Source: Candidatus Omnitrophota bacterium
GTDB taxonomy: Bacteria; Omnitrophota; Gorgyraeia; JABMRN01; RBG-13-46-9
Assembly (NCBI GenBank): GCA_013203315.1
Contig: JABMQJ010000002.1
Coordinates: 1-45,831 of the forward strand
Reading direction: 5' to 3'
Length of the DNA: 45,831 nt
The notes under the pieces were generated by a model that was not told the origin of the DNA, did not search any database, and saw only the letters and a list, made by a program, of their open reading frames with translations. Shown piece after piece: positions 4,044 through 27,198 of this stretch (positions within the stretch are counted from its first letter, which is position 1; every line of letters begins with the position of its first letter). A program made the translations under genes and the position numbers.

Positions 4044-5147
4044 TTAGGCGAGGGAGACGTCTTTTAACGTGCCCAAAAATGCATCCAGCACGTCCGGGTC
4101 GAATTGTTTACCCCTGTTGATTTTAAGTTCCTCGATGGCCTTTTCAGCGCTCATCCTTGACCTGTATGCCCTATCGGATGTCATGGCGTCAAAAGCATCT
4201 GTGCATCCGATGATACGGGCCAAAAGCGGTATTTCTTCTCCCCTCAAACCGTCGGGATAACCGCCTCCGTCATACCTTTCGTGGTGATGTTTTATGGCAG
4301 GGATCCCGCTTTCAAGAAATTTCAGATTCGAGAGTATTTCTACGGCTTTGGCGGGATGTATTTCTATCTCCGCCCTTTCTGTTTCGGTAAGGCGGCCGGG
4401 TTTATTCAATATAAGATCGGATATGGCAATTTTGCCGATGTCATGCAACCTTCCGCAATAGGTAAGCATTATTCTATCCTCTTTCGAAAGGCCGAGCACG
4501 CCTGCTATCGCCAGGGCATAGTCTGTAACCTTTTCCGAATGCCCGCGGGTGTACGCATCCCGCGCCTCGACGGCGGAAACAAGGGATTTTATCGTATTCA
4601 TGTATGAGTTAAAAATTTTCTTATGCACCCTGACGTTGTCTATTAATATGGCTATGTGATTGGCGAAATTCATAAGAATTGTTGAATCGCTCTTTTTGAA
4701 TTTTCCCACTTTCCTGCCGTAAACTGTCAGCGTTCCCATTGTCTCTTTTTTTAAAAGGATAGGAACGCAAATTAAGGAACGGATTTTTTCTTTTTTGATG
4801 TCTTTTTTAAATTTTATGTCGCGCCTGGTTGCGGTATCTTTTATAACAATGGGTTTTTTTATGGCAGCGACTTTACCCGCAATGCCATCTCCGATTGCCA
4901 CAATTGTCTTTTTTGTGTAGTCTTTGCTTAAACCCTTACTTACTCTGGTTGTTAAAATTCTTTTATGGCTATCAATCAGCCTAAGATTGCATATTTTTGC
5001 GTTTAATAAAATCGGCGCGATTTTGACGGATTGCTTAAGGATTTTATCAAAGGAAAGTTCGTGTGTGTTCGTGAACTGTTTATCTAATTCGGATATAAAA
5101 TCGAAATATGAGTTGTTCTTATGCACGGTGTTTATTTTTTTTGACAT
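4044..5147 (-). CDS. GAF + HD-GYP cyclic-dinucleotide phosphodiesterase
   Basis: N-terminal GAF domain (GDGIAGKVA, SLICVPI); DAYTRGHS, LHDIGK, HHERYDGGGYP and DAFDAMTSDRAYR motifs intact. Confidence 0.9.
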   Translation of the reverse strand: MSKKINTVHKNNSYFDFISELDKQFTNTHELSFDKILKQSVKIAPILLNAKICNLRLIDSHKRILTTRVSKGLSKDYTKKTIVAIGDGIAGKVAAIKKPIVIKDTATRRDIKFKKDIKKEKIRSLICVPILLKKETMGTLTVYGRKVGKFKKSDSTILMNFANHIAILIDNVRVHKKIFNSYMNTIKSLVSAVEARDAYTRGHSEKVTDYALAIAGVLGLSKEDRIMLTYCGRLHDIGKIAISDLILNKPGRLTETERAEIEIHPAKAVEILSNLKFLESGIPAIKHHHERYDGGGYPDGLRGEEIPLLARIIGCTDAFDAMTSDRAYRSRMSAEKAIEELKINRGKQFDPDVLDAFLGTLKDVSLA

Positions 5148-5329: not shown

Positions 5330-6847
5330 CTACGCCACGAAAAGGCTTTTCGATGAAAAATTCGGTTCGCAGGTAAGATTAACCCCCAGGCTTCGCAGGC
5401 CTACCTCATCTCCCGGGGTTGGGATATGTGTCATGTGGACTTCGCATTCTTTAAGTTCTTTTAGCTTTTGCATGGCTAATTTGGCCGTAGGGTTAGTAGC
5501 TGCGCTTATGCTTAAACTTATTAAGGTTTCGTCCAGATTAAGGCTAAGACTCTTCGCGCCCAAAACATCTTCTTTTAAGTTCGCTATCGACCCGATAGTG
5601 TTGGGCGATAAAAGGTGTCTTTTATCAGGTATTTCGGCTAGAACCTTAATGGCATTAAGGATAAGGCTCGAGGCAGTGTGCATCAAAGGTGAATTCTTGC
5701 CGGTAATAATTCTCCCGTCTCGTAGTTCTATGGCTCCGCCGCAAAAAATTCCCTTGTTACCTTTTTTCTTTTTCTTGGCTTCCTCGGAAGCTTTCCTGGC
5801 GGGCTTTACCACGATTCTATCTTCCGGCTTAAGATTGAGTTCTTTTAAAAGCGATTCAATCCTCTCCACTGTTCCCCGGTCAACAAAACCCAGCACGTGT
5901 TCACAAGCATACCTGAAATATCTTCTTATGATTTCCTGTTTTGCGGCCTCTTGCACTGCTTTGTCTTTTACAATCCCGAAACCGGCGCAGTTTACGCCCA
6001 TATCCGTAGGAGATTTATAGACTTCTTTGGCGCCCATTATTTTTTTCAGAATCTTTTTTAGTACCGGGAAGACCTCTACGTCGCGGTTGTAGTTAATAGC
6101 TGTTTTCTTATGGGCCTCCAGATGAAAGGGGTCGATCAGATTGAAATCCCTGAGATCCGCAGTAGCTGCTTCATAAGCTACGTTTACAGGATGTTTTAAT
6201 GGTATATTCCATATGGGGAAAGTTTCAAACTTGGCATATCCTGAATTTACGCCTCTTTTGTGATCGTGATAAAGTTGTGAAAGGCAAGTCGCCAGCTTTC
6301 CGCTTCCGGGACCGGGCGCTGTAACTACAACCAAAGGCTTATTAGTTTTAATATACGGATTAGCGCCATAGCCTTCTTCGCTTACTATCGTATCCACATC
6401 CTTAGGATAACCTTTCGTAAACTTATGGGTATATACCTTTACGCCGCGTTTTTCTAATTTATTTTTGAATATCTTCGCTGCCGGTTGGTTGTCGAATCTT
6501 GTTATCACGACAGCCAAAACATCAATGCCCCAATCCCGCAAATCGTCAATTAACTTCAGCGCATCGACGTCATAGGTAATGCCAAAGTCAGCCCTTACCT
6601 TTCTTCTTTCAATGTCGCCGGCGTAGATACAGAGTATGATATCCGCGTTATCCTTTAGTTTTTTAAGTAATCTCATTTTTACGCAAGGGTCAAATCCCGG
6701 CAAAACCCTTGAGGCGTGCATGTCATAAATAATTTTACCGCCAAACTCTAGGTAAAGTTTATTATCGAATTTTTTTACTCTCTCTAATATAGCCTTGGTT
6801 TGCTCTTTCAGGTATTTTTCATTATCAAAACCTTTTCTTTGCGGCAT
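5330..6847 (-). CDS. DUF1846/UPF0371 family P-loop protein
   Basis: GFDNEKYL, LYLEFGGK, TAPGPGSGKLATCLSQLYH, YAKFETFPIWN, YEAATADL and SPTDMGVN signatures. Confidence 0.85.
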   Translation of the reverse strand: MPQRKGFDNEKYLKEQTKAILERVKKFDNKLYLEFGGKIIYDMHASRVLPGFDPCVKMRLLKKLKDNADIILCIYAGDIERRKVRADFGITYDVDALKLIDDLRDWGIDVLAVVITRFDNQPAAKIFKNKLEKRGVKVYTHKFTKGYPKDVDTIVSEEGYGANPYIKTNKPLVVVTAPGPGSGKLATCLSQLYHDHKRGVNSGYAKFETFPIWNIPLKHPVNVAYEAATADLRDFNLIDPFHLEAHKKTAINYNRDVEVFPVLKKILKKIMGAKEVYKSPTDMGVNCAGFGIVKDKAVQEAAKQEIIRRYFRYACEHVLGFVDRGTVERIESLLKELNLKPEDRIVVKPARKASEEAKKKKKGNKGIFCGGAIELRDGRIITGKNSPLMHTASSLILNAIKVLAEIPDKRHLLSPNTIGSIANLKEDVLGAKSLSLNLDETLISLSISAATNPTAKLAMQKLKELKECEVHMTHIPTPGDEVGLRSLGVNLTCEPNFSSKSLFVA

Positions 6848-6874: not shown

Positions 6875-9800
6875 CTATTGTAGTATTTTTTCCTCTTTTT
6901 TTTTACTCGCTGTAAGATCTTTGTGGTAATCCTGTAAAGACTTCGGTAAAGCCTTTGACTTAAGCATGCTCTCTATCCCTTCTATGCTGGCCTCCGCAGC
7001 TGTAAGTGAAGTGATGTAAGGAATTTTGTGTTTTATCGCGCTCATGCGGATGTAGCTGTCGTCGTGTTTTCCGCTGTGTCCGATGGGTGTATTGATAATA
7101 AGATTTATTTCTTTGTTTTTGATTGCATCGGAAATATTGGGCCTGCCTTCGTGCAGTTTTTTTACGACGCTACTGTCTATCCCCTTTTCCTTTAAGAAGC
7201 GCGCTGTGCCCTCTGTGGCATAAAAATTAAATCCGAGCTTTTTTAGCTTTTTTGCGATGGACAGGAGAAATTTCTTATCCTTATCGGCTACCGTAAGTAA
7301 AGCATTTCCTTTTAAGGGAAGCCTGATCCCGGCAGCTTCCTGGGCTTTATAAAAAGCTTCTCCGAATGTATTCGCGATTCCCATGACCTCGCCTGTAGCC
7401 CTCATTTCAGGGCCGAGTAGCGGATCTACTTCCGGAAACATATTAAACGGGAATACAGCTTCTTTCACTCCGACATAAGGGATTTTTTGCGTTTTTAATT
7501 CCGGGAAGCTTGAAAGCTTTTTACCCAGCATTACCTGCGTTGCAATCCTGGCTATGGGTATATCCATGATCTTAGAAACAATCGGAACAGTTCGAGAAGC
7601 GCGCGGATTGGCTTCAAGAATATACACCTTATCATCGCAAATAGCGTATTGTATATTCGTAAGGCCTACGACCTTCAATTCTTTTGCGATTTGCGCGGAA
7701 TATTCTTTAATAGTTTCAAGGTGTTCTTTTTTTATGGTTCGGCTGGGAATTACGCAAGCCGAATCTCCCGAATGCACGCCGGCCAGCTCTATGTGTTCCA
7801 TTATAGCTGCCACAAAGGTGTCTTTTCCGTCGGAAACAGCATCCACCTCAACTTCAACGGCTTCTTCGAGAAATCTGTCAATTAACATCGGGTGTTCCGG
7901 GCTAACGTCTATTGCCCCAAGCGCATAGTTACGTAACATCGTTTCATCATATACAACTTCCATGCCACGGCCGCCTAAAACATATGAAGGTCGCACCATG
8001 AGCGGATATCCTATTTTTTCGGCGATCTTTAGCGCTTCTTCGAGTGAGCGTGCCGTGCCGCTTTCCGGTTGAGGTATGCTAAGTTTAATCATTTTTTCTC
8101 TGAAACGCTCTCTGTCCTCGGCAAGGTCTATACTCTCGGGGCTTGTTCCTAAAATCTTGACACCGTTATCTTTAAGTTCTTGGGCGAGATTGAGCGGTGT
8201 CTGCCCGCCGAACTGAACTATAGCGCCGATAGGTTTTTCTTTTTCGTAAATTGTTAATACGTCTTCAACCGTGAGTGGTTCAAAATAAAGCTTGTTCGAC
8301 GTGTCGTAATCGGTTGAAACGGTCTCGGGATTGCAGTTAACCATTATTGATTCATATCCTTCGTCTCTTAGCGCAAATGCAGCGTGAACGCACGTGTAAT
8401 CAAATTCTATGCCCTGGCCTATGCGGTTTGGCCCTCCGCCGAGTATTAATATTTTTTTATTCGGCGATACGGGGACCTTATCTTCTCCGATATAAGTCGA
8501 ATAATAATATGCTGCATTTTCGACTCCGCTTACCGGAACCGCATCGTAGCGGCCGTGTTTTCCTATCGCAATTCTTTTTTCTCTTACGTCCTTTTCTTTA
8601 ACACCGAAAAGCCCCGCAAGATAACGATCCGAGAAACCCCATTCTTTGGCTTTCGCTAATCTTTCGTCGGGAAATTTCTTCCATGAAAACTTAAGGATCT
8701 CTTCCTCGTATTCGACAAGTTCCTTTATTTCATTGATAAACCAAGTTCCGATATGCGTAACTTTATAAAGCTCATCTATCGTCATCCCTTTTCTAAGCGC
8801 TTCGTACATCAAAAATATGCGTTCGCTGGAAGGGGCCGCGAGTTTTTGCCTTAGCGCATCAAGCGTAAGGGTTTTAAAATTTTTCGCCCCACCTACGCCG
8901 TATCTTTTTATCTCAAGCGAGCGTATGGCTTTCTGGAAGGCTTCCTTAAATGTCTTTCCTATGCTCATGACCTCGCCCACGGCTCTCATTTGGGTTCCAA
9001 GGACATCTTTGGAGCCTGGAAATTTCTCAAAGGCCCATCTGGCAAATTTAATTACAACATAGTCGCCCCATGGTTCATATTTTTCCAAGGTGCCTTTTCT
9101 CCAGTAAGGAATCTCATCCATGGTTAAACCCGCTGCAAGCTTCGTGGAAATACGCGCGATCGGAAATCCCGTAGCCTTTGAGGCAAGCGCCGAAGAACGC
9201 GATGTCCTGGGATTAATTTCTATGACTACGATCCTGTCGTCTTTTACATTGTGCGCAAATTGAATATTGGTCCCCCCTACAACGCCGATGGCATCTACAA
9301 TCTTATAGGAAATATCCTGCATGCGCTTCTGCAAGGGTTTCGGAACCGTAAGCATGGGCGCGCAACAGAAACTGTCGCCTGTGTGAACGCCCATTGCATC
9401 AATGTTTTCTATAAAACAAACCGTTATTTTCTGATTTTTATTGTCTCTTACAACTTCAAGTTCCAGCTCTTCCCATCCTATAACCGCCTCTTCTACTAAA
9501 ACCTGATGTACGATACTTGCAGCAAGGCCGCGGCTCACGATCGTCCTAAGTTCGTCGATATTGTAAGCGATTCCGCCGCCTGTCCCACCCATTGTATAAG
9601 CCGGCCTTAAGACAACAGGATACCCAAGGTTTTCTACAATTTTTTCGGCTTCTTCCACGGAATGACATGGTTCTGACTTAGGCATGGAAACACCGAGCTT
9701 ATTCATTGTTGCCTTAAAAGCAATTCTGTCTTCTCCGCGCTCGATAGCATCAGCTTTAACGCCTATGATTTCTACGTTGTATTTTTTTAGAATTCCGGAT

Positions 9801-10111
9801 TTATAAAGACTGGAAGAAAGGTTAAGCCCTGTCTGTCCGCCCAAATTCGACAATAGCCCGTCCGGCCTTTCTTTTTCGATAATTTTCTCAAGGCTCTCTA
9901 TGGTAAGCGGTTCAATATACGTCTTATGGGCCATGCCCGGATCGGTCATGATTGTGGCGGGGTTGGAATTTACGAGCACGACCTCGTATCCTTCCTCTTT
10001 TAATGCCTTACAGGCTTGAGTGCCCGAATAGTCAAACTCGCAGGCCTGGCCTATGATGATCGGCCCGGACCCTATGATTAGAATTTTGTGGATGTCATTT
10101 CTTTTCGGCAT
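6875..10111 (-). CDS. carB: Carbamoyl-phosphate synthase large subunit
   Basis: IGSGPIIIGQACEFDYSGTQAC, NSNPATIMTD, second ATP-grasp GPNRIGQGIEFDY, C-terminal MGS-like domain; 1078 aa. Confidence 0.97.
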   Translation of the reverse strand: MPKRNDIHKILIIGSGPIIIGQACEFDYSGTQACKALKEEGYEVVLVNSNPATIMTDPGMAHKTYIEPLTIESLEKIIEKERPDGLLSNLGGQTGLNLSSSLYKSGILKKYNVEIIGVKADAIERGEDRIAFKATMNKLGVSMPKSEPCHSVEEAEKIVENLGYPVVLRPAYTMGGTGGGIAYNIDELRTIVSRGLAASIVHQVLVEEAVIGWEELELEVVRDNKNQKITVCFIENIDAMGVHTGDSFCCAPMLTVPKPLQKRMQDISYKIVDAIGVVGGTNIQFAHNVKDDRIVVIEINPRTSRSSALASKATGFPIARISTKLAAGLTMDEIPYWRKGTLEKYEPWGDYVVIKFARWAFEKFPGSKDVLGTQMRAVGEVMSIGKTFKEAFQKAIRSLEIKRYGVGGAKNFKTLTLDALRQKLAAPSSERIFLMYEALRKGMTIDELYKVTHIGTWFINEIKELVEYEEEILKFSWKKFPDERLAKAKEWGFSDRYLAGLFGVKEKDVREKRIAIGKHGRYDAVPVSGVENAAYYYSTYIGEDKVPVSPNKKILILGGGPNRIGQGIEFDYTCVHAAFALRDEGYESIMVNCNPETVSTDYDTSNKLYFEPLTVEDVLTIYEKEKPIGAIVQFGGQTPLNLAQELKDNGVKILGTSPESIDLAEDRERFREKMIKLSIPQPESGTARSLEEALKIAEKIGYPLMVRPSYVLGGRGMEVVYDETMLRNYALGAIDVSPEHPMLIDRFLEEAVEVEVDAVSDGKDTFVAAIMEHIELAGVHSGDSACVIPSRTIKKEHLETIKEYSAQIAKELKVVGLTNIQYAICDDKVYILEANPRASRTVPIVSKIMDIPIARIATQVMLGKKLSSFPELKTQKIPYVGVKEAVFPFNMFPEVDPLLGPEMRATGEVMGIANTFGEAFYKAQEAAGIRLPLKGNALLTVADKDKKFLLSIAKKLKKLGFNFYATEGTARFLKEKGIDSSVVKKLHEGRPNISDAIKNKEINLIINTPIGHSGKHDDSYIRMSAIKHKIPYITSLTAAEASIEGIESMLKSKALPKSLQDYHKDLTASKKKEEKILQ

Positions 10112-10191
10112 TTCCTTTTTTCCTCCCTTGTTTTTCCGCTTGTCATGTTGATATATTGCTGGTTATTATATCATTATTTATCTTATATGAC

Positions 10192-10236
10192 AAAAGAAAA
10201 GAGAGGATGCCTCTTCTTTTAAGACATCCTCTCTTT
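10192..10236 (-). terminator. Intrinsic terminator after gdhA
   Basis: AAAGAGAGGATG...CATCCTCTCTTT stem followed by a T-rich tail on the minus strand. Confidence 0.8.
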
Positions 10237-10262
10237 GGTTAAACCGAAATTGCATAGACAGT

Positions 10263-11600
10263 TTACACTAATCCTTGATCAAGCATGGCATCGGCTACTT
10301 TTACAAATCCACCGATGTTCGCTCCCTTTACGTAATTGACATGCTTTCCTTCTTTACCGTATTTAACGCAAATCTCGTGTATAGCTATCATGATGTTGTG
10401 AAGCTTGCTATCCACTTCTTCACTTGTCCACGATAGGCGTTCTGAGTTCTGGGACATCTCAAGGCCTGAAACAGCAACGCCACCCGCGTTAGCTGCTTTA
10501 CCCGGACCATAAAGAATCTTGGCTTTTTGGAATACCTCGATACCTTCGGGAGTTGTAGGCATATTAGCGCCTTCTCCGACGGCTATGCAGCCTCCTTTAA
10601 CGAGCTTCTTCGCATCACTTTCATTTATCTCGTTTTGTGTGGCAGAAGGAAACGCAACATCACATTCTACTTCCCAAGGCTTTTTGTTTTCGAAGTATTT
10701 ACAATTGTATTTCTTAGCGTATTCTTTTATGCGTCCGCGTTTGACATTCTTAAGGTCCATAACGAATGCCAGCTTCTTTTCATCCACTCCGTGGCTATCA
10801 TAAATATATCCGCCGGAATCGGATAAGGTAACCACTTTACCACCCAGCTGGTTTACTTTTTCCACAGTATACTGGGCAACATTTCCTGACCCGGAAACCG
10901 TGCAAACCTTCCCCTTTAGAGAATCGCCTTTGGTTTTTAACATTTCTTCGACAAAATAAACGCAACCATAGCCTGTTGCTTCGGACCTAATAAGGCTTCC
11001 ACCCCAGTTAAGGCCTTTTCCGGTAAGAACGCCCGTAAACTCATTTCGAAGCTTTTTGTATTGCCCGAACATGTAGCCGATTTCGCGGCCACCCACGCCT
11101 ATATCGCCTGCCGGTATGTCGGTATCAGGCCCTATATGCCTTGAAAGCTCCGTCATAAAGCTCTGACAGAATCTCATGACTTCATTATCGGATTTCCCCT
11201 TAGGATCAAAATTTGATCCGCCTTTGCCGCCTCCCATAGGAAGTGTGGTAAGGCTGTTTTTGAAGACCTGTTCAAATGCCAGAAATTTTAAAATTCCCAA
11301 ATAAACTGTGGGGTGAAGGCGAAGGCCTCCTTTATAAGGGCCTATCGCGCTATTCATCTCAATGCGGTACCCTCTATTAACCTGCACCTCACCGGCATCA
11401 TCCATCCATGGAACGCGAAACATGATAACCCTCTCCGGTTCGACAATCCTTTCCAGGATTTTAGCTTTAAGATATTTTGGATTTTTCTCCAGGTATGGCA
11501 TAACCGATTCAACGACTTCCAGCACTGCCTGGTGAAATTCTTTTTCACCCGGGTTTTTTGCAATAACTTCATTCATGAAATCTTTAACTTTTTTTGTCAT
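10263..11600 (-). CDS. gdhA: NADP-specific glutamate dehydrogenase
   Basis: GPYKGGLR, KNSLTTLPMGGGKGG, DIPAGDIGVG, EATGYG, SGSGNVA and GKAANAGGVA motifs; GGAGG RBS. Confidence 0.96.
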   Translation of the reverse strand: MTKKVKDFMNEVIAKNPGEKEFHQAVLEVVESVMPYLEKNPKYLKAKILERIVEPERVIMFRVPWMDDAGEVQVNRGYRIEMNSAIGPYKGGLRLHPTVYLGILKFLAFEQVFKNSLTTLPMGGGKGGSNFDPKGKSDNEVMRFCQSFMTELSRHIGPDTDIPAGDIGVGGREIGYMFGQYKKLRNEFTGVLTGKGLNWGGSLIRSEATGYGCVYFVEEMLKTKGDSLKGKVCTVSGSGNVAQYTVEKVNQLGGKVVTLSDSGGYIYDSHGVDEKKLAFVMDLKNVKRGRIKEYAKKYNCKYFENKKPWEVECDVAFPSATQNEINESDAKKLVKGGCIAVGEGANMPTTPEGIEVFQKAKILYGPGKAANAGGVAVSGLEMSQNSERLSWTSEEVDSKLHNIMIAIHEICVKYGKEGKHVNYVKGANIGGFVKVADAMLDQGLV

Positions 11601-11630
11601 TTTTCCTCCTTTTTAAAATAGCACCTGCAT

Positions 11631-11682
11631 AAAAAAAGCCCCAATCTCTTGGGGCTACTTTGCCTTTTTAAACTTCTTCGTT
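11631..11682 (-). promoter_or_regulatory. ANTAR-type dual-hexaloop attenuator upstream of gdhA
   Basis: AAC-GAAGAA-GTT, 6-nt linker, GGC-AAAGTA-GCC, overlapping the terminator AGCCCCAA-GAGA-TTGGGGCT-T6. Confidence 0.85.
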
Positions 11683-11688
11683 AGGACC

Positions 11689-11716
11689 ATTATACCGCTT
11701 AACATAAATATGTCAA
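11689..11716 (-). promoter_or_regulatory. gdhA promoter
   Basis: TTGACA-16-TATAAT; the predicted start lies at the first hairpin. Confidence 0.75.
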
Positions 11717-11733
11717 GTCTTTCTTTGAATTTT

Positions 11734-12477
11734 TCAATCTTTTTTTCCCTTGCTTCTTACTTCGCAAGAAAGTATGATCGCCTCGGCTATATCTTTCATG
11801 TTAACGCGTTTATTCATGCTGGATTTTCGTAGTAAATTGTAAGCGTCTTCTTCGGTAATATCCTGCTCTTTCATTAAAATACCCTTTGCCTTTTCTATTT
11901 TTTTTCTTGATTCCAACTCCTCTCCGATGACCTTGGTCTTAACAAGGAGTTCGGTATTTTCAATCGCCACCGCGGCCTGGTTTGCTACGGTGCTCAAAAG
12001 ATTAACGTCACTTTTAGTAAATTTATACATTGTCGTGGTGTAACAGTTAATAACACCTATAACTCTTTTTTTTACCATCATGGGAACGCTAAGCATGGAA
12101 ACGAGATTCTCTTCTCTTGCCAGCTTCTTCTCTTTATACGCAGGGTCCTTTAAAACATTTGCTATTATTATCGGTTTTCTTTCTTTTGCTATCAACCCGA
12201 CAACGCCTTCTCCTAGCCTAAGGCTTCTTTCCTTCAGATATTCCTCGCTCATGGCTTGAGTGGCCCGAATTTTTAAGTGTTTGGTTTTTTCATCTAAAAG
12301 CCACAATGAACAAATCTTGGCTTTCATTACGTTAGCCGTTAAGGTAACGATAAGCTTGAGGACATCCTCTAGATAAAGGTCAGAAGTTATTGCCCTGCTT
12401 ATTTTGCTTAATGCGTCGATGTGGCTTTTGTAAGAAGTGTCTTTCAACTTGCCCATAGGGTAGGTTCTTAAATTCAA
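11734..12477 (-). CDS. GAF-ANTAR one-component RNA-binding antiterminator (start may be the ATG at 12456)
   Basis: GAF domain (LGEGVVG, SMLSVPM, ANQAAVAIEN) followed by ANTAR consensus LESRKKIEKAKGILM...EEDAYNLLRKSSMNKRVNMKDIAEAII; ORF begins 8 nt after glnA. Confidence 0.93.
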   Translation of the reverse strand: MNLRTYPMGKLKDTSYKSHIDALSKISRAITSDLYLEDVLKLIVTLTANVMKAKICSLWLLDEKTKHLKIRATQAMSEEYLKERSLRLGEGVVGLIAKERKPIIIANVLKDPAYKEKKLAREENLVSMLSVPMMVKKRVIGVINCYTTTMYKFTKSDVNLLSTVANQAAVAIENTELLVKTKVIGEELESRKKIEKAKGILMKEQDITEEDAYNLLRKSSMNKRVNMKDIAEAIILSCEVRSKGKKD

Positions 12478-12485
12478 TCAGCCAA

Positions 12486-13805
12486 TTATAAAATAGCCAG
12501 ATACTTGTCTAATTCGTATGCCGTTATCTGCCTTCTATATTCGTTCCATTCGTCTTTTTTATTGCGGATAAAGTATTCGAATACCTTGTCACCTAAGGCT
12601 TTTCTTACGATGGCGCTCTTTTCTGTTATTTTTATGGCTTCGAATAAATCGTCCGGTAAAGATGTTATTTTTCTTCTTTTTCTTTCGGACTCCGACATGT
12701 CGTATATATTGCCCGTTACTTGCTCGGGTAAAGGATATTTCTGTTTAATGCCTTCGAGGCCTGCCGCGAGCATTACTGAAAACGCGAGGTACGGGTTGCA
12801 CGCCGGATCGGGGTTACGAAGCTCAACCCTTGTTGCGTTTTCCTTGCCGGGTTTATACATGGGCACCCTTACGAGTGCGGAACGGTTCCTTTGCGCCCAT
12901 GAAACATATACGGGCGCTTCATACCCCGGCACCAGCCTCTTGTATGAATTTACCCATTGGCAGCATACGGAACAAATTTCCGTGGCGTGCTTTAGGAGCC
13001 CGGCGATGAAATACTTTGCCGTCTTTGAGAGATGAAGTTTATCCTTGGGATCAAAAAAGGCGTTTCTCTTACCTTTAAAAAGTGACATATGCGTATGCAT
13101 GCCGCTTCCGTTTATACCATAAACCGGTTTTGGCATGAATGTAGCGTAAAGGTTTTCTTTCATGGCCACTTCTTTTACGGCCATGCGATAGGTCATCACG
13201 TTGTCAGCCATAATCATCGCCTCATTATAGCGCAGGTCTATTTCGTGCTGGGAGTTTGCTACCTCGTGGTGCCAGTATTCAACGTCTATTCCCATCTTCT
13301 CGAGCACGACAACGGTTTTGCGCCTTAAGTCCTGCCCTATATCCATCGGGGTAAGATCAAAATACCCTCCCTTATCGAGGATTTCGGTACCGCCTTTGTT
13401 GCGAAAATAAAAATACTCGAGTTCCGGACCTACATTAAAGGTATAGCCCATTTTTTTGGCGACTTCAAGATTTTTTTTCAGAACGTATCTCGGGTCCCCG
13501 GGGAAGGGTTTACCGGTCGTGTCCAGAACATTGCAGAACATTCTGGCCACAGGTCTATCTTCTTTGATCCAAGGAATGATCTGGAATGTCGCCGGGTCTG
13601 GCTTTACAAGCATGTCGGATTCTTCAATGCGCGAAAAGCCTTCTATCGAAGACCCATCAAAACCCATTCCGTCTTTTAAGGCACCTGCCAGTTCCCCTAC
13701 CGGAATATCAAAGCTTTTTAAAAAACCCAAAACATCGGTAAACCACAGGCGCACAAAGCCTATGTTTTTTTTCTTTACTATATCTAAGATCCCCTGTTTT
13801 GCCAT
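12486..13805 (-). CDS. glnA: Glutamine synthetase type I
   Basis: FDGSSIEGF, GPELEY, HHEVA.SQHEI, FMPKP..GINGSGMHTH, NSYKRLVPGYEAP and RVELRNPDPACNPY motifs. Confidence 0.96.
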   Translation of the reverse strand: MAKQGILDIVKKKNIGFVRLWFTDVLGFLKSFDIPVGELAGALKDGMGFDGSSIEGFSRIEESDMLVKPDPATFQIIPWIKEDRPVARMFCNVLDTTGKPFPGDPRYVLKKNLEVAKKMGYTFNVGPELEYFYFRNKGGTEILDKGGYFDLTPMDIGQDLRRKTVVVLEKMGIDVEYWHHEVANSQHEIDLRYNEAMIMADNVMTYRMAVKEVAMKENLYATFMPKPVYGINGSGMHTHMSLFKGKRNAFFDPKDKLHLSKTAKYFIAGLLKHATEICSVCCQWVNSYKRLVPGYEAPVYVSWAQRNRSALVRVPMYKPGKENATRVELRNPDPACNPYLAFSVMLAAGLEGIKQKYPLPEQVTGNIYDMSESERKRRKITSLPDDLFEAIKITEKSAIVRKALGDKVFEYFIRNKKDEWNEYRRQITAYELDKYLAIL

Positions 13806-13839
13806 TACTGTCCTCTCTTCCTTATATTATGTTCCGCAT

Positions 13840-13868
13840 ATTATAGCAAATCTGTGGTGATATTTCAA
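13840..13868 (-). promoter_or_regulatory. Promoter for glnA and the ANTAR gene
   Basis: TTGAAA-17-TATAAT with extended -10 TG. Confidence 0.65.
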
Positions 13869-13873
13869 ACAAT

Positions 13874-15070
13874 CTATTTAGCTTTTTCTTCCCAGCGCGA
13901 TTTGAGTTTGGGATTGTCTATCCACGATAGCAAATACTTGGTGTATTCGTCTCCTGTCACACCGGTTTCCCTTCCTGTAATCGCCATTTTCTTTTCGTAT
14001 AATCCACATACATCCAGAGCCATTTCCACTTTTTCGGCTCTCTCCGGAAAACCTATGTGTCTCAAGAGCATGGCGCTTGCGCGTACCATAGAACACGGAT
14101 CCGCGAATTTATCGCGGCCTTCGGTTACCATGCGCGGCGCACTTCCGTGAATCGCTTCAAACATGGCCCATTTTTTCCCTATGTTTGCGCTTCCGGCCGT
14201 ACCAACACCCCCCTGAAGTTGGGCCGCTTCATCGGTCAAGATGTCGCCGTAAAGGTTTGGAAGGACAAATACCTTGAATTCGTTGCGGCGCACTGGGTCT
14301 AACAATTTTGCCGTCATAATATCGATATACCACTCATCCAGGCGGATCTTGGGATATTCCTTCGCTATGCGGAATGCTACTCTCGAAAAACGACCGTCTG
14401 TTGTTTTAACCACATTAGATTTTGTAACAACCGTTACGCGATCGATATTATTATTCTTGGCGTATTCAAAAGCCATGCGAATAATCCGCTCGGCGCCGGG
14501 TTCCGTAATAACTTTAAAATCCACGCTTATATCCTCGGACACATCAAACCCCTTTGAGCCTAATACGTATGCGCCTTCTGTGTTTTCCCGGAAGAAGCAC
14601 CAGTCGATCCCATCTTTAGGGATTCGCACAGGTCTAACGTTGGCGAAAAGATCCAGGTGTCGGCGCATGGCCACGTTAGCGCTTTCTATATTGGGCCATT
14701 TATCCCCTGCTTGTGGGGTCGTCGTGGGACCTTTCAATATTACGTGGCAGGATTTTATTTCTTTCAACACGTCATCGGGAATTGCTTTTTTATGCTTGGC
14801 CCTGTTTTCAATAGTAAGCCCTGCAATGTCTTTAAACTTGATTTTCCCTTTGGCTACTTCGCTTTTAAGAACGTGGTTTAACACTTTCTCGGCGTGCCCG
14901 GAGATCACTTTGCCGATACCGTCCCCCCAGCAAACACCGATAATAATGGGTGACACCGAAGAATAATCTATCCGCCCGGTGTCTTTTTTCATCTTTTCGA
15001 CGCGCCGAAGCTCGCCTTCGACTATACTTGCAAATTTACTTTTTGCATCTTCGATTAGTTTTTTTGACAT
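13874..15070 (-). CDS. icd: Isocitrate dehydrogenase (isocitrate/isopropylmalate dehydrogenase family)
   Basis: GDGIG, KGPTTTP, SANVAMR (isocitrate-type S-x-N), RENTEG, NLYGDILTD, FEAIHGSAP. Start set at ATG 15070 with a GAGGGA RBS rather than GTG 15094. Confidence 0.8.
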   Translation of the reverse strand: MSKKLIEDAKSKFASIVEGELRRVEKMKKDTGRIDYSSVSPIIIGVCWGDGIGKVISGHAEKVLNHVLKSEVAKGKIKFKDIAGLTIENRAKHKKAIPDDVLKEIKSCHVILKGPTTTPQAGDKWPNIESANVAMRRHLDLFANVRPVRIPKDGIDWCFFRENTEGAYVLGSKGFDVSEDISVDFKVITEPGAERIIRMAFEYAKNNNIDRVTVVTKSNVVKTTDGRFSRVAFRIAKEYPKIRLDEWYIDIMTAKLLDPVRRNEFKVFVLPNLYGDILTDEAAQLQGGVGTAGSANIGKKWAMFEAIHGSAPRMVTEGRDKFADPCSMVRASAMLLRHIGFPERAEKVEMALDVCGLYEKKMAITGRETGVTGDEYTKYLLSWIDNPKLKSRWEEKAK

Positions 15071-15139
15071 ATTGTTCCCTCTTTCGAAAATCACTTTAAA
15101 AAACTATGTCTTTCCGCATAGGATTATACCTCTTAAAGC

Positions 15140-15166
15140 AAAAAAACCCAAGCAAAATATGCTTGG
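15140..15166 (-). terminator. Intrinsic terminator after nfnB
   Basis: CCAAGCA-TATTT-TGCTTGG followed by GT7. Confidence 0.65.
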
Positions 15167-15216
15167 CGCTTTTAAAAATGAAGCAAATTTCTATCTCGCG
15201 CTTATGCTTTTTTGTT

Positions 15217-16632
15217 CTATGAGAGTAGGCGCTTGATTATCGCCGCGGCGGCTTTCTTTGCCATGCCCATAGCTTCAATAACAGTGCCTTCGCCACCTAC
15301 AATGTCACCACCGGCATAAACGTTCTTAATCGACGTTTCCATGGTCTCGGAATCAACGGTTACGTCCCCCCACTTATCAACTTTTAAATTCGGAGTAACG
15401 CTTGTAAGGACACGGTTTGCCCCGAGCCCAACTGCAATTACCGCTATGTCACAATCGGATTCAAATTCGCTACCTTCGATCGGGATCGGCCTTCTCCTTC
15501 CGCTTGCGTCAGGTTCGCCCAGCTTGCATTGTAAGCATTTAATTTTTTCAACGCATCCTTCTTTACCCGTAAAACCTACAGGTTGAGTTAAGAATCTGAA
15601 TTTTATTCCCTCTTCCTTGGCGTGCTCGATTTCAAGGCGCCTGGCAGGCATTTCTTTCTCAGTCCGCCTGTAAAATACACTGACATTCGGCGGTATATTA
15701 TTGATCTTCTGGAGCCTCAAAGCTACCCTTGCCGCGTCCATGGCAGTGTTCCCGCCACCTACAACCACTATGCTCTTTCCTATATTTATGGGCGTGTGGA
15801 ACCGGGGAAACTCATACGCCTTCATTAAATTAACGCGTGTTAAAAATTCATTCGCAGAATAAACGTTGCAAAGGCTTTCGCCTTCCAGCTTCAAGAAAGA
15901 CGGCGTTCCCGCGCCTAATCCTAAAAATACGCAAGAATATCCTTCGGAAAAAAGTTCATCCAGAGACTTGCTTTTTCCTATAATGACATTTGTATTTATT
16001 TCTACCCCTAATTTCGCCAGGCAATCTATTTCGGCATTCAGGACATCCCCGGGCAATCTGAACGGCGGTATTCCGTAAGCCAATACGCCCCCTGTTTTAT
16101 GGAGGCTTTCAAAAATTACTACTTTTACCCCTAATCTCGCAAGCTCGCCGGCGCAGCATAGCCCGGCCGGGCCTGAACCTACAACAGCGACTTTAAATTT
16201 TGAAAGCTTCTCATTCTTTTGCGTGGGAATGTTTACATTGTTCTCCATTCCGTAGTCACCGGCAAATCTCTCCAGAAAATGTATGTTTATGGCATTTTCC
16301 GAGGCAAAGGGTAAATCTTTTTTTGTAAAGACGCACTTCTTTCTGCATTGATATTCAGCCGGACAGACCCTGCCGCACATGGACGGAAAATCGTTCTTTT
16401 CTCTTATGGTAAGATAAGCGCCTTTATAATCCTTATCCTTGATCTGGGCTATGAACTTCTTGATGTCTATTCCTACCGGACAACCGATTATGCACACGGG
16501 ATTCTTGCACTGTATGCACCTTGCGGCTTCTTCGAGCGCCTCTTTTTCCGTATAACGAGAAACAACCTCGCTAAAATCCACTATTCTCTTTTGTGCGTCC
16601 AAATCTTGTGGCTTTATTGGGACTTTTTTCAT
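15217..16632 (-). CDS. nfnB: NfnB/SudA (GltD-like) large subunit of electron-bifurcating transhydrogenase
   Basis: CIQCKNPVC..GCPV and CGRVCP..QC Fe-S motifs; GSGPAG and GGGNTAMD Rossmann motifs; overlaps the nfnA-like gene by 4 nt. Confidence 0.85.
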   Translation of the reverse strand: MKKVPIKPQDLDAQKRIVDFSEVVSRYTEKEALEEAARCIQCKNPVCIIGCPVGIDIKKFIAQIKDKDYKGAYLTIREKNDFPSMCGRVCPAEYQCRKKCVFTKKDLPFASENAINIHFLERFAGDYGMENNVNIPTQKNEKLSKFKVAVVGSGPAGLCCAGELARLGVKVVIFESLHKTGGVLAYGIPPFRLPGDVLNAEIDCLAKLGVEINTNVIIGKSKSLDELFSEGYSCVFLGLGAGTPSFLKLEGESLCNVYSANEFLTRVNLMKAYEFPRFHTPINIGKSIVVVGGGNTAMDAARVALRLQKINNIPPNVSVFYRRTEKEMPARRLEIEHAKEEGIKFRFLTQPVGFTGKEGCVEKIKCLQCKLGEPDASGRRRPIPIEGSEFESDCDIAVIAVGLGANRVLTSVTPNLKVDKWGDVTVDSETMETSIKNVYAGGDIVGGEGTVIEAMGMAKKAAAAIIKRLLS

Positions 16633-17468
16633 GTTTTTTCCAATCTACAAATATGATCTTCTTTTTTGCAATATATTTTGCTGCGATTCTGTAGCTCTTC
16701 CCAGTTTACCAGGTTTCCGTCAAACTCCGGCCCGTCTATGCAGCTAAATTGCACCTTTTTATTAACGGTTACCCGGCAACATCCGCACATTCCCGTGCCG
16801 TCAACCATGAGCGCATTTAAAGAAACCAGTGTTTTTACGCCGTAGGGCTTGCTCGTAAGAGAAACCTTTGCCATCATGGGGATTGGGCCGACCGCGTATA
16901 TGAGGCTGTAGGCCGAAGGCTTTGAATCATTAGTTAATAACTCTTTTAGAATATCAGTGGTAAAACCCTTCTTTCCGTATGAACCATCATCGGTAGCGAC
17001 GTGTAATTCATCGGATACAGATTTTAATTCTTGCTCTAAAATAAGTAGGTTCTTAGCTCTTGCGCCCAAAATAGTTGTCACATGGTTTCCGACATTTTTA
17101 AGCGCCCGCGCGACAGGGTATATTTCCGCGATACCTACTCCGCCGCCTACCAGAATTACCTTTCCGTATTTTTTTATTTCCATAGCGTGCCCCAAGGGAC
17201 CCGCTATGGCGTAAATATCATCGCCTGTATTTAATTTACCGAGAAGCTTTGTCGTAAAACCTAATTCCTGAAAAATTAACGTGATCGTGCCCTTTTGTTT
17301 ATCCGTATCCACGACTGTGAGAGGAATCCTTTCCCCGGATTCTTCTACCATAACGACAACAAACTGTCCTGGTTCCGCTTTTGGTGCCACAAGAGGAACA
17401 CGAACCACGATCTTTGTGACCCTCGTGCCTCCAGTGTCCATTAAAACAGATTTTTCTAATATTTCCAT
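16629..17468 (-). CDS. nfnA: NfnA/SudB small subunit (FAD, 2Fe-2S)
   Basis: PGQFV, GERIPLT, GPLG, GGGVG, TDDGSYG and MVDGTGMCGCCRV...CIDGPEF motifs. Confidence 0.87.
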   Translation of the reverse strand: MEILEKSVLMDTGGTRVTKIVVRVPLVAPKAEPGQFVVVMVEESGERIPLTVVDTDKQKGTITLIFQELGFTTKLLGKLNTGDDIYAIAGPLGHAMEIKKYGKVILVGGGVGIAEIYPVARALKNVGNHVTTILGARAKNLLILEQELKSVSDELHVATDDGSYGKKGFTTDILKELLTNDSKPSAYSLIYAVGPIPMMAKVSLTSKPYGVKTLVSLNALMVDGTGMCGCCRVTVNKKVQFSCIDGPEFDGNLVNWEELQNRSKIYCKKEDHICRLEKT

Positions 17469-17507
17469 GCGATGCTTCCTTTTTGCTACATTGAGAAAAT
17501 CGTAGGC

Positions 17508-17563
17508 AAAAAAAATAGCCCCAGATTCTGGGGCTTCCTTGCCTTATTTAACTCCGTTATCAA
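17508..17563 (-). promoter_or_regulatory. ANTAR-type attenuator upstream of nfnAB
   Basis: TTGAT-AACGGA-GTTAA (weak, two G:U pairs), then GGC-AAGGAA-GCC overlapping the terminator AGCCCCAG-AAT-CTGGGGCT-A-T8. Confidence 0.8.
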
Positions 17564-17568
17564 AAGCA

Positions 17569-17597
17569 ATGCTAACATTAAAGGTTATATTTGTCAA
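17569..17597 (-). promoter_or_regulatory. nfnAB promoter
   Basis: TTGACA-17-TAGCAT with extended -10 TG. Confidence 0.65.
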
Positions 17598-17617
17598 GTT
17601 CAAAATTTGTGCGCTCC

Positions 17618-18097
17618 CTACCCGCATACCAAAGATATCCAGCTACCTACGTAGTGCGTAATAATGATGACTATAATAGCAATGCCGATATGTTCTGCCG
17701 CAACCTTCCATGGTTTTTCATTTTGTTTTCTAGCCATGCCATAACTAAAAACACAAAGCATTGCAAGTCCCCATATTATACTTATTGCGATTGCTTTCGA
17801 AAGCTCGAACAGTAAAACCGGGATAACGAACGTAAGCGCAAAAACAAACTTTGACAAAAAAGTGGAAATTGTAGCCGCCCATATCTGTTTATGCGTATGC
17901 TTACCCTCAGATTCTTCCGACACATGAATGCCTAGCGCGTCTGAAAATGCGTCGGCTATGGCTATGGTTAATATGCCGCCTATTACGGCAAGCTTTGAAT
18001 GCGTGCCCGCATTAAGCCCCACCATAAGTCCAAGAGTAGTAATTATACCCGAAGTCAATCCGAAACTAAATCCTATCGTCAACGAATGTCTTAACAC
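17618..18097 (-). CDS. VIT1/CCC1 family membrane protein
   Basis: FGLTSGIITTLGLMVG...IADAFSDALGIHVSEESE signature; several TM segments. Confidence 0.75.
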   Translation of the reverse strand: MLRHSLTIGFSFGLTSGIITTLGLMVGLNAGTHSKLAVIGGILTIAIADAFSDALGIHVSEESEGKHTHKQIWAATISTFLSKFVFALTFVIPVLLFELSKAIAISIIWGLAMLCVFSYGMARKQNEKPWKVAAEHIGIAIIVIIITHYVGSWISLVCG

Positions 18098-21944: not shown

Positions 21945-22910
21945 TTAGCTATTTAAAACGTATTGGAACATAAGCGGGGCGACAATACTAGCGTCTGATT
22001 CGATCATGAATTTCGGTGTGTCAACGCCTAACTTTTCCCACGTGATCTTTTCGTTTGGCACAGCGCCGCTATAGGAACCGTAAGAAGTTGTGCTATCGCT
22101 AATCTGACAAAAATATCCCCAAAAAGGGCACTCTTTAGCTAAATCCTGTTTTATGAGTGGCACCACGCATATCGCGAAGTCACCTGCGATTCCTCCCCCT
22201 ATCTGAAAAAACCCTATTGAGCTATTTTTTGAATTCTCCAAATACCAGTCGATCAGATAGTTCATTTGTTCTAAACCGCTTTTTACAAAATTAAGGTCTT
22301 TGAATCGGCCCTGTCGCATATTGGCGACCAAGCCGTTACCCAGAGTGGAATCTTCCCAGCCCGGTGTAAAAATCGGTAAATTTTTCTCGCATGCAGCCAG
22401 AACCCAGCTATGCTTGGGATCTATTTCGTAATATTCTTTTAATTCCCCGCTTCGGATGAGTTCGTACATAAATTCGTACGGAAAAAGTCTTTTACCGCCG
22501 GCTTCGGCTTTTTCCCATATGAGGTAAAGTTTTTCCTGCAGCCTCCTGACCGCCTTTTCCTCGGGTATACAGGTATCGGTAACGCGGCTCAAGTGGGCTT
22601 TCCTTAGCCCGATTTCTTCTTCCGGGTGAAGATGCCTGTAATTCGGCACCCTTTTGTAACTGGCGTGGGCAATCAGATTAAATATATCCTCTTCCAGATT
22701 AGCGGCGGTGCATGAAATGCCGTGAATTTTATTTTTTCTTATCATCTCGCTTAAAGAAATACCTATCTCACCTGTTGAAAGCGCACCCGCCATGGCAAGA
22801 AACATTTTTCCGCCCCCTTTAAGATGCCGAACCCAGGCTTCCGAAGCCTCAGTTACAACCGCGGCGTTAAAATGTTTGAAATTTTCGTTTACGAATTTTT
22901 TTATGTCCAT
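21945..22910 (-). CDS. Deoxyhypusine synthase-like protein
   Basis: HFNAA, MAGALSTGE, RVTDTCIPEE, IGGGIAGD, SYSGAVPNEKITWEK (Lys retained) and SDASIVAP motifs. Confidence 0.85.
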   Translation of the reverse strand: MDIKKFVNENFKHFNAAVVTEASEAWVRHLKGGGKMFLAMAGALSTGEIGISLSEMIRKNKIHGISCTAANLEEDIFNLIAHASYKRVPNYRHLHPEEEIGLRKAHLSRVTDTCIPEEKAVRRLQEKLYLIWEKAEAGGKRLFPYEFMYELIRSGELKEYYEIDPKHSWVLAACEKNLPIFTPGWEDSTLGNGLVANMRQGRFKDLNFVKSGLEQMNYLIDWYLENSKNSSIGFFQIGGGIAGDFAICVVPLIKQDLAKECPFWGYFCQISDSTTSYGSYSGAVPNEKITWEKLGVDTPKFMIESDASIVAPLMFQYVLNS

Positions 22911-22914
22911 GTTT

Positions 22915-23388
22915 TTATAATAATTTTGATATTTGATCCCGACATTCCTTGGCGCTTTCGGCCTGTTGGAGTGATGTCATCGCCTGAACGCGCGCGCCCT
23001 TTGCCTCAAGGCCTTTTTTCATAACTTGGAGGGCTTTGTCTTTTCCGGCGCCGCTTCCGTAAGTCACAAACAGGATCGCAGTCTTGCCCTCCAGCGAGCT
23101 GCACTCATTAAGGTAGGAATTAATTGCCGGGGCCGGCTTGAATGCCCATACAGGGCTCCCTATGATAACGCGGTCAAAATCCTTAAGATCCAAAAGAGTT
23201 CTATAAAGTTCCGGTTTCTTTCCGAGAAATGCCTCCCTGCACTGCATTATAAACGATGTTTCTTCCTTAAGTGGCCTTATCCTGATTGGAGTGGCTTCCT
23301 CGCCTTTGTTTTTTAATAAGTCAATTATAAGCTGCGCCACGCGATGCGTATTACCTGAATAGGAATAATAAACTACTGCGGATTTCAT
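22915..23388 (-). CDS. Flavodoxin family protein
   Basis: YYSYSGNT, IGSPVW and FVTYGSG motifs. Confidence 0.85.
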   Translation of the reverse strand: MKSAVVYYSYSGNTHRVAQLIIDLLKNKGEEATPIRIRPLKEETSFIMQCREAFLGKKPELYRTLLDLKDFDRVIIGSPVWAFKPAPAINSYLNECSSLEGKTAILFVTYGSGAGKDKALQVMKKGLEAKGARVQAMTSLQQAESAKECRDQISKLL

Positions 23389-23410
23389 ACTTTACCTCCT
23401 CCGACAGATT

Positions 23411-24043: not shown

Positions 24044-24066
24044 TTTTAAGCCTCCTAAAGTGTATT

Positions 24067-24095
24067 ATTATACTCTGAAAAATACAATGCCTCAA
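24067..24095 (-). promoter_or_regulatory. Promoter of the mscS-to-VIT operon
   Basis: TTGAGG-17-TATAAT; AGGAGG RBS downstream. Confidence 0.6.
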
Positions 24096-24207
24096 GGTAA
24101 ATTTAGAGTATTAAATTTTTTATCACTTTTTCTTTCCAAAAATAAATAAATATGTTATACTGCAAATAGAATAACAAAGTTTTTTACAAACAATATACGG
24201 AGGTTTT

Positions 24208-26995: not shown

Positions 26996-27071
26996 CGGGG
27001 CGTAGCGAAGCTTGGTTTATCGCGCCTGGTTTGGGACCAGGAGGTCGTCAGTTCGAATCTGACCGCCCCGA
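26996..27071 (+). tRNA. tRNA-Pro(TGG), CCA not encoded
   Basis: CGGGGCG acceptor stem, CCTGG-TTTGGGA-CCAGG anticodon arm, GTCAG-TTCGAAT-CTGAC T arm. Confidence 0.95.
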
Positions 27072-27097
27072 CTCTTTACAAATTTGGTTGTCGTAAA

Positions 27098-27198
27098 TAA
27101 GGTACTTCGGAAGTAAGAAAGGTCCTTCAACAATGATCAATCCTCCCATAAGTCGGATTGATAACATTGTTTCAGGATCAAAATTGTTTCACAATTTT
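27098..27198 (+). repeat. 101-bp tRNA-leader structured repeat, copy 1
   Basis: 96/101 identical to the reverse complement of 45585-45685; ends flush with G1 of tRNA-Arg(TCT). Confidence 0.92.

Follow-up and report, generated by a model that had tools for sequence, protein, structure and literature searches.

The 45,831-nucleotide stretch of DNA analyzed here (referred to as the window) is contig C19 of the 1.5-Mb, 97% complete genome of a Candidatus Omnitrophota bacterium. It contains a real and well-supported ANTAR-type circuit of known mechanism, composed of (i) a gene encoding a one-component regulator with GAF and ANTAR domains, located directly behind the glutamine synthetase gene glnA, and (ii) two homologous leaders, one preceding gdhA (glutamate dehydrogenase, GDH) and the other preceding nfnAB (NfnAB-type transhydrogenase). 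Both leaders are, with high probability, attenuators under ANTAR control. The mechanism is that of EutV, NasR, GnfR and NitR; apparently not yet described in print are the class of sensor (GAF), a transhydrogenase as target and, in related genomes, a form of the RNA element with only one hairpin.

Architecture of the two leaders and their cognate regulator

The genes concerned form a minus-strand block in the order nfnA-nfnB, an icd-like gene, glnA, the GAF-ANTAR gene, gdhA, carB and a DUF1846 gene, and all features described for this block lie on the minus strand. The leader of gdhA begins with a predicted sigma-70-type promoter (11689–11716; 16-nt spacer, 12/12 consensus), followed by a first hairpin, P1 (11671–11682; AAC-GAAGAA-GUU), with G at loop position 1 (G1) and the G at position 4 (G4) kept, a second hairpin, P2 (11653–11664; GGC-AAAGUA-GCC), and an intrinsic terminator (11630–11656) made up of an 8-bp stem (11656–11637) and a U tract (−14.0 kcal/mol). 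The nfnA leader has the same arrangement: a predicted sigma-70-type promoter (17569–17597; 17-nt spacer, extended −10, 10/12 consensus plus TG), P1 (17548–17563; core 17561–17550, extendable to 5 bp) with the hexaloop AACGGA (A at position 1, A1, and G4) and a U-G closing pair, P2 (17532–17543; GGC-AAGGAA-GCC), which is excluded by the terminator, and the terminator itself (17508–17535; 8-bp stem 17535–17517 plus U tract; −14.7 kcal/mol). In both cases the promoter is placed 24–25 nt upstream of P2, the P1-P2 linker is 6 nt long, and the 5′ arm of the terminator consists of the last loop base of P2 and the 3′ arm of P2. Each leader therefore shows the features of an ANTAR attenuator, i.e. two hexaloop hairpins of at least 3 bp, a short linker and a P2 mutually exclusive with the terminator. 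Both loops of the nfnA leader (AACGGA and AAGGAA) have A1 and G4; of the gdhA loops, that of P2 (AAAGUA) has them and that of P1 (GAAGAA) does not. The promoters, hairpin pairs and P2-overlapping terminators proposed in the initial annotation were thus confirmed by scanning and folding. Its claim of terminator covariation held for the two 8-bp stems, but the covariation is limited to a single loop-closing pair with a compensated change (A-U versus G-C) and, taken alone, is weak evidence.

Folding gave about −4 kcal/mol for P1 and P2 together, compared to −14.0 and −14.7 kcal/mol for the terminators, and P2 was essentially unformed in the absence of protein (the closing-pair probability of the nfnA P2 was about 0). 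Given this large difference in stability in favor of the terminator, RNA polymerase would by default stop within the gdhA and nfnAB leaders. By analogy with EutV and NasR, an active dimer would load on P1, hold P2 folded and so block the terminator.

A genome-wide scan for two hairpins with an overlapping terminator produced three matches among 746 tandem hairpins: the gdhA leader, the nfnA leader and a third site close to the beginning of contig C8, where a long open frame runs on the other strand. The two leaders are the only intergenic matches in the genome. As a chance control, 30 locally shuffled genomes gave six matches in total and at most two each. The corresponding scan for one hairpin plus terminator yielded 11 matches, not above the 5–12 found in 10 shuffles, and no further credible target in this genome; the signal here therefore rests on the full architecture and on the relatives. 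Promoter and terminator scans as a whole were not above shuffles either (26 versus 25.6 and 21 versus 17.3), and the weight of these calls lies in the top-ranked sites and their placement. In an Rfam search at gathering score the window gave only seven tRNAs and no family for the element; 20 element-bearing loci gave two weak matches (E 0.44 and 0.56). A look for RNA sequencing runs covering 10000–18000 listed none, which carries no weight for or against the circuit.

The regulator gene (11734–12477) starts 8 nt behind glnA (12486–13805; type I glutamine synthetase; TIGR00653, 529 bits versus a cut-off of 429) when a TTG start is taken; the likelier start is ATG at 12459. It is the sole ANTAR gene found in the genome (PF03861, 71 bits versus a cut-off of 27.3), and the regulator has 11 matches in its own genome. 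The predicted structure (77 sequences; mean predicted local distance difference test score 85.9) comprises a GAF domain, a 50-residue coiled-coil helix (149–199) and an ANTAR bundle. The location of the NitR gene is reportedly similar, i.e. next to glnA. Alignment, with a two-residue numbering offset, showed that nine of the ten RNA-contact residues of EutV named in PMC8934654 are identical in the regulator (R191, K192, K196, E209, Y213, R217, M221, N222 and R224); the position of EutV R177 is occupied by N226. The assignment of one cognate GAF-ANTAR protein was upheld, and no targets other than gdhA and nfnAB could be detected for it in the genome.

A promoter predicted for glnA and the GAF-ANTAR gene is located at 13840–13868 (11/12 consensus plus TG), and the nfnAB unit is separated from glnA by a terminator (15148–15166). 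Three other genes of the block, glnA, the icd-like gene and carB, were considered as ANTAR targets and rejected, as a search for hairpins that overlap a terminator in their leaders found none. Since glnA has its own promoter and no leader terminator, and nfnAB is cut off by the terminator at 15166–15148, the proposed coupling to glnA reduces to probable co-transcription with the regulator, which would act as a one-component antiterminator translated from the same mRNA as glnA; glnA itself is not a target.

The identities of the two targets hold by sequence. The gdhA product (10263–11600) is an NADP-specific GDH (NF006929, 773.9 bits versus a cut-off of 536). nfnA (16629–17468; small subunit) and nfnB (15217–16632; large subunit) are adjacent and overlap, and both subunits find their best sequence matches among the Nfn structures of Pyrococcus furiosus (PDB 5JCA) and Thermotoga maritima (PDB 4YLF, which we take to be the NfnAB of this species, the search naming it only as a dehydrogenase subunit); for nfnA the best PDB match is P. 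furiosus NfnI beta (E 1.9e-85). The nfnB product is above the TIGR01316 ‘glutamate synthase’ cut-off, but its closest structural relatives are Nfn large subunits (E 1e-126 to 1e-137, versus 1e-76 for GltD chains). Its identification as a glutamate synthase (GOGAT) was rejected, since Nfn structures score best and a GOGAT large subunit was not found. The FAD arginine (R201 in P. furiosus) and the cluster-ligand glutamate are kept as R192 and E121, residues that may not be diagnostic against GltD.

Distribution and forms of the element in related genomes

Comparison with 61 Omnitrophota-class genomes revealed an ANTAR gene in 44, at positions coinciding with homologues of this regulator. The leaders of gdhA and nfnA homologues contain a conserved P2 and terminator in two sequence classes: class A, with the GGC stem seen in the window, and class B, with a GAC or AAC stem and a loop that is mostly AAAGGC or AAAGAC. 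When the two outer P2 pairs were left free, 119 of 152 elements paired at both, compared to 75±3.6 in shuffles (maximum 88 in 2000 shuffles), a count inflated by the relatedness of the genomes; the middle pair alternates between A-U (79) and G-C (48). Among sequences with C, T or A in place of G4, pairing was seen in only 3/31, 1/9 and 2/18, respectively.

The expected co-occurrence of element and GAF-ANTAR gene was also observed: either pattern was found in 35 of the 44 ANTAR-positive genomes and in 2 of the 17 in which no ANTAR gene was found. Pattern B was found in 31/44 versus 1/17 genomes (reversed control, 3 matches); pattern A alone did not distinguish the two groups (11/44 versus 2/17, p 0.32). 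For individual genes, the loci used were the 30 top-scoring matches of each gene, to which 3 (nfnA) and 1 (gdhA) were added, out of 55 and 32 genomes with a match. Within these, an element directly precedes nfnA in 12/25 ANTAR-positive versus 1/8 other genomes, and gdhA in 10/25 versus 0/6; the single ANTAR-not-found genome with an nfnA element is 57% complete and has a contig ending inside glnA. Absence of the hairpins from orthologous leaders in genomes that keep the ANTAR gene calls for cautious reading: 13/25 such genomes lack an element immediately before nfnA and 15/25 lack one immediately before gdhA, in several of them because the gene is located within an operon. The junction between VIT1 and nfnA is a 133–236-nt gap with an element in four ANTAR-positive genomes (G000, G002, G005 and G013) and a 7–16-nt gap without one in four genomes in which no ANTAR gene was found (G001, G003, G011 and G012). 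In the single-contig genome G012, gdhA abuts carB at the place where relatives hold the regulator.

Two points weigh against this association. The patterns were derived from leaders of mostly ANTAR-positive genomes and related genomes are not independent, so P-values are overstated. Furthermore, G019 (94% complete) contains elements of both patterns (on contig C9, at 7986–8017 and 11571–11603), which look real, and no ANTAR gene was found in it; the regulator may fall in a gap of the assembly or have been lost recently, or a different protein may read the elements. A further exception, G027, has one match before an unrelated-looking gene and no ANTAR gene found.

Apart from one hybrid stem (G052), nfnA and gdhA were not preceded by a class A leader anywhere else in the sample. 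Since syntenic relatives carry class B, not class A, before nfnA, the nfnA leader of the window may be a copy of the leader located behind the regulator. More distant nfnA homologues (52–60%; loci L081, L083, L084, L086 and L088) lie directly behind another gene, presumably ApbE-like, without an element.

From a set of 135 elements, 17 were removed by eye as coding, antisense or nested, and the others were counted. The downstream genes include amtB, glnK, glnA, gltB, FMN glutamate-synthase-family genes, gdhA and nfnA, as well as carA, carB, pyrG, hisF, nadE and genes for a glutamine amidotransferase and a NuoE-like protein. Two recurrent target types, of 170–180 and 250–280 residues (e.g. L092:10928–11464 and L093:10906–11685), had no Pfam (1e-8) or NCBIfam (1e-25) match; we assume them to be sigma-like and porin-like, respectively. 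A clean division of classes A and B into starvation genes and glutamine consumers was not supported, as both precede carA/carB, glnA, glnK and glutamate-synthase-family genes. A metagenome scan for the two-hairpin type of the window gave 32 matches, of which the six with a terminator precede amtB, gltB, a glutamate-synthase-family gene or a sigma-like gene; none of these six precedes nfnA or gdhA, and the other 26 have no clear terminator behind them.

The regulon initially described as self-contained is so in this genome, but in relatives it is wider, and the circuit of the window is a reduced remnant of a class-wide nitrogen regulon: with GOGAT, Amt and PII not found here, gdhA and nfnAB are the remaining targets. 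Close homologues of the regulator are mostly titled Candidatus Omnitrophota, many are titled ‘uncultured Planctomycetia’, and Deltaproteobacteria lie further out. The deltaproteobacterial homologues (65–67% identical, including Syntrophaceae; L162, L164, L166, L167, L169 and L171) are located at loci with class B elements before glutamate-synthase-like genes. At four loci (L024:1436, minus strand; L046:2931, L195:1500 and L126:2273, plus strand) an element lies directly upstream of the GAF-ANTAR gene itself, which suggests positive autoregulation in some lineages; such an element is absent from the window.

Many elements of the relatives, though neither leader of the window, have one hairpin. 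Among first-in-series elements, 17/29 of class A (shuffles 0.3) but only 5/78 of class B (shuffles 1.1) have a P1 2–8 nt upstream, with a further 13/78 of class B having one at 9–20 nt. A promoter was predicted at 63 of the 107 first-in-series elements (shuffles 3.2), the start sites being predicted, not mapped. In 14 elements (shuffles 1.0, maximum 5) the predicted −10 box ends less than 20 nt before P2, which leaves no room for a P1. P1 is held to be necessary for antitermination, single hexaloops being expected only where transcription imposes no time constraint (PMC8934654). Compensation for the missing P1 by longer terminators was not significant for promoter-proximal elements (median 27.5 versus 21 nt, p 0.08). 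Tandem arrays of two or three hairpin-terminator modules also occur (L119:1145–1320; L048, L111, L117, L127, L128, L139, L140 and L143), their later modules being mostly without P1; one-hairpin modules placed second in tandem have longer terminators (median 34 versus 21 nt, p 1e-4).

Signal, direction of regulation and genomic setting

The ligand of the GAF domain may be glutamine or 2-oxoglutarate, at about even odds. This reading is supported by the fold, which is closest to the GAF domains of PtsP (enzyme I-Ntr): these took ranks 1–3 in the fold search (PDB 3TRC and 3CI6 included; TM-score 0.83–0.87 by target length) and ranks second and third in a sequence search of the PDB, and the PtsP GAF responds to glutamine (inhibitory) and 2-oxoglutarate (stimulatory) (PMC13104625). 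The regulator is not a full-length PtsP (81.8 bits versus a cut-off of 583). Several observations speak against a firm assignment. Identity to the PtsP GAFs is only 24–29%, and their margin over other GAF folds is narrow, an HD-GYP GAF ranking fourth and a cyclic AMP-binding GAF eighth, with Nlh2 and a Geobacter domain close; the matches included no ligand-bound reference. The GAF-HD-GYP protein encoded in the window (4044–5147, minus strand; 11/12 promoter at 5268–5240) is 31% identical to the regulator GAF.

The products of amtB, glnK, glnA and gltB are classically made in nitrogen starvation. The two-hairpin class A leader of the window aligns with the leaders of these four genes and of glutamate-synthase-family genes in relatives, most of which have a single ANTAR gene. 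Because the same leader type precedes amtB, glnK, glnA and gltB, the switch is probably ON in nitrogen limitation; attenuation and this direction taken together, the ligand aside, are almost as probable. The regulator would then most likely be active when glutamine is low and 2-oxoglutarate high, as sensed by the GAF domain, and the response would be more NADP-GDH and more NfnAB, limited to these since searches of the genome gave neither a glutamate synthase nor an ammonium transporter nor PII. A precedent for GDH turned up in nitrogen limitation is a Clostridium thermocellum strain without GOGAT, in which GDH activity rises 2-fold under ammonium limitation (PMC9888227).

Other data count against this reading. 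GDH activity of wild-type C. thermocellum falls 64-fold (PMC9888227), gdhA of Geobacter is repressed in nitrogen limitation (PMC2995071), and deletion of nfnAB in C. thermocellum had no meaningful effect on amino-acid output (PMC9888227). Moreover, many one-hairpin elements precede the glutamine consumers pyrG, carA, carB, hisF, nadE and an amidotransferase, and this could agree with a switch of opposite sign. A protein switched on by glutamine or nitrogen excess, with GDH, NfnAB and glutamine consumers made at plentiful ammonium, would agree with GDH being the route taken at high ammonium by Geobacter and C. thermocellum and with a genome that looks adapted to direct ammonia use: searches of it gave no PyrG, CarA, GOGAT, Amt or PII (at 97% completeness, absence is unproven), gltB gave no match, and a search for the GOGAT large subunit gave one marginal match (83 positions, 21 bits). 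We nevertheless consider this reversal unlikely, given that the two-hairpin leader type of the window precedes amtB, glnK, glnA and gltB in relatives and that GnfR and NitR act in nitrogen limitation (PMC2995071, PMC6316151).

Control by a signal other than a GAF-bound nitrogen metabolite, such as a nucleotide, a redox signal or binding of glutamine synthetase, would account both for nfnAB being a target and for the gene lying next to glnA. The close ranking of cyclic AMP-binding and HD-GYP GAFs behind those of PtsP, the presence of glnA within the fetched flank at 28/80 regulator loci and the reported action of cyclic di-GMP on the ANTAR protein NasT (PMC10783516) are in its favor. The strong conservation of the GAF across the class (mean column identity 70%, with invariant residues in the core) and the predominance of nitrogen genes, rather than redox genes, among the targets make it an improbable explanation, slightly more so than the reversed sign.

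Finally, the P1 hairpins deviate from consensus at one position per leader (G1 in gdhA; in nfnA, a U-G closing pair where relatives usually have C-G), and eutP leader mutants in A1 or the closing pairs lost induction (PMC3369931), which counts against functional leaders. The idea that P1 has drifted and that fixed, leaky terminators set expression, with little effect of the regulator, would also agree with the remaining regulon not having been found in this genome, but it is very unlikely, as the regulator has kept its RNA-contact residues and is intact, EutV does not contact A1 specifically (PMC8934654), G1 recurs in relatives (28/56 such terminator-overlapping hairpins keep a full stem, many upstream of nitrogen genes) and genomes without a detected regulator mostly lack the leaders. 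The gdhA P1 is filed as a near-consensus variant presumed to work like the family.

With induction in nitrogen limitation as the preferred reading, NfnAB could turn NADH and reduced ferredoxin into NADPH that GDH spends, and we infer that it supplies NADPH to GDH. An nfnB homologue lies directly upstream of gdhA at 9/31 gdhA loci. At one locus (L159:573–6350) a class B element is followed by three genes directly before gdhA, whose products are NuoE-like, NuoF-like and, with 697 residues, Fe-S plus GltD-like; a similar arrangement, its start cut off, is present at L146:3–4257. The best solved matches of the L159 Fe-S plus GltD-like protein include chain 8OH5_C, whose 1172 residues agree with the published length of StnC (PMC10482914); the L159 protein is much shorter and without the C-terminal part. 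Judged by these matches, a second, Stn-like transhydrogenase architecture appears to be under the same control in this locus. Up-regulation of nfnAB in nitrogen-fixing Geobacter is cited in PMC10746287, with no ANTAR link stated in the passages concerned.

Taken as a whole, the most far-reaching proposal is a tentative one, which we regard as possible rather than probable. A kinase-free glutamine/2-oxoglutarate sensor of Omnitrophota (a PtsP-like GAF-ANTAR protein) would tie reductant supply to nitrogen status by co-inducing GDH and a bifurcating transhydrogenase that makes NADPH, which would be NfnAB in many lineages and a Stn-like complex in one or more, GDH going up when nitrogen is short; the same protein would also work on natural one-hairpin attenuators at the transcript start, which have no room for an EutV-type recruitment hairpin, and on tandem arrays with longer later terminators. 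If true, ANTAR control reaches an electron-bifurcating redox enzyme, beyond genes of nitrogen uptake and assimilation, and anaerobes have a direct transcriptional link from nitrogen status to NADPH supply. The small protein (about 240 residues) and its defined RNA targets suit the testing of a GAF-ANTAR ligand, and the two-hairpin, one-hairpin and tandem leaders of one regulator family open a way to test the reason for the requirement of P1, a question posed by PMC8934654. The mechanism of the switch is itself textbook, which limits the surprise.

Of the neighboring genes, the icd-like gene (13874–15094; isocitrate/isopropylmalate dehydrogenase family, under all NCBIfam cut-offs) sits between the nfnAB terminator and the glnA promoter and is a likely source of 2-oxoglutarate; a second family member is located on contig C10, and in G038 an 80% identical homologue lies between nfnB and gdhA. 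The gdhA unit ends at a 16-bp terminator (10198–10236), beyond which carB (6875–10111) has its own predicted promoter (10165–10193). The DUF1846 gene beside carB (5330–6847) encodes a close homologue of PyrJ (PDB 7F00, E 2e-156), an ammonia-only CTP synthase (bioRxiv 10.1101/2024.09.24.614635). Since searches gave no PyrG, CarA, GOGAT, Amt or PII, the genome may assimilate free ammonia directly via GDH, CarB and PyrJ. Elsewhere in the window, a deoxyhypusine-synthase-family gene and a divergent saccharopine-dehydrogenase-family/PLP-decarboxylase pair (21945–26863) are probably involved in polyamine synthesis, and the seven tRNA genes lie at 5–77, 397–478, 2485–2558, 26996–27410 and 45512–45584.

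Comparison with known systems

A literature search (titles and abstract starts, subscription journals being mostly outside) found no paper naming gdhA or nfnAB as an ANTAR target and none characterizing a GAF-ANTAR protein. Term searches of the available supplementary files of PMC3369931 gave no ‘glutamate dehydrogenase’, ‘transhydrogenase’ or ‘dihydroorotate’ target; ‘glutamate synthase’ occurs there in 11 places, and an nfnB annotated wrongly could be among these. The transhydrogenase of the window, as assigned from its sequence, differs from known NfnAB in being encoded behind an ANTAR-type attenuator, and the regulator differs from PtsP in that its GAF is joined to an ANTAR output, not to phosphotransfer, and its invariant pocket residues are not all shared.

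Among ANTAR systems of nitrogen metabolism, GnfK/GnfR of Geobacter sulfurreducens also acts by antitermination on nitrogen genes, including glnK and amtB, in nitrogen limitation; unlike the circuit of the window, it is a two-component system with RpoN promoters, and gdhA of Geobacter is not an ANTAR target but is controlled by the DNA-binding GnfM (PMC2995071). NitR, encoded in the glnA-nitR-gltAB cluster of Clostridium saccharobutylicum, is likewise an ANTAR regulator inducing glutamine synthetase and GOGAT genes in nitrogen limitation (reviewed in PMC6316151), whereas the targets in the window are GDH and NfnAB, GOGAT not having been found. NasR of Klebsiella oxytoca resembles the regulator in combining a small-molecule sensor and ANTAR in one polypeptide and in attenuating nitrogen genes (PMC7496416), but its sensor is a NIT domain instead of GAF; in that 2020 paper only NasR and PAL are named as characterized one-component ANTAR proteins.

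The closest likeness in RNA architecture is to EutV and the eut leaders of Enterococcus faecalis, which also have two 3-bp hexaloop hairpins, G4 and a P2 overlapping the intrinsic terminator (PMC3369931, PMC8934654). The 6-nt linkers of the window fall within the 5–12 nt of eut (PMC3369931), and the RNA-contact residues are shared as described above. In contrast to eut, P1 deviates from consensus in the window and is missing from many relatives, the targets are assimilation and redox genes, and the input comes from a GAF domain, not from a phosphorylated receiver.

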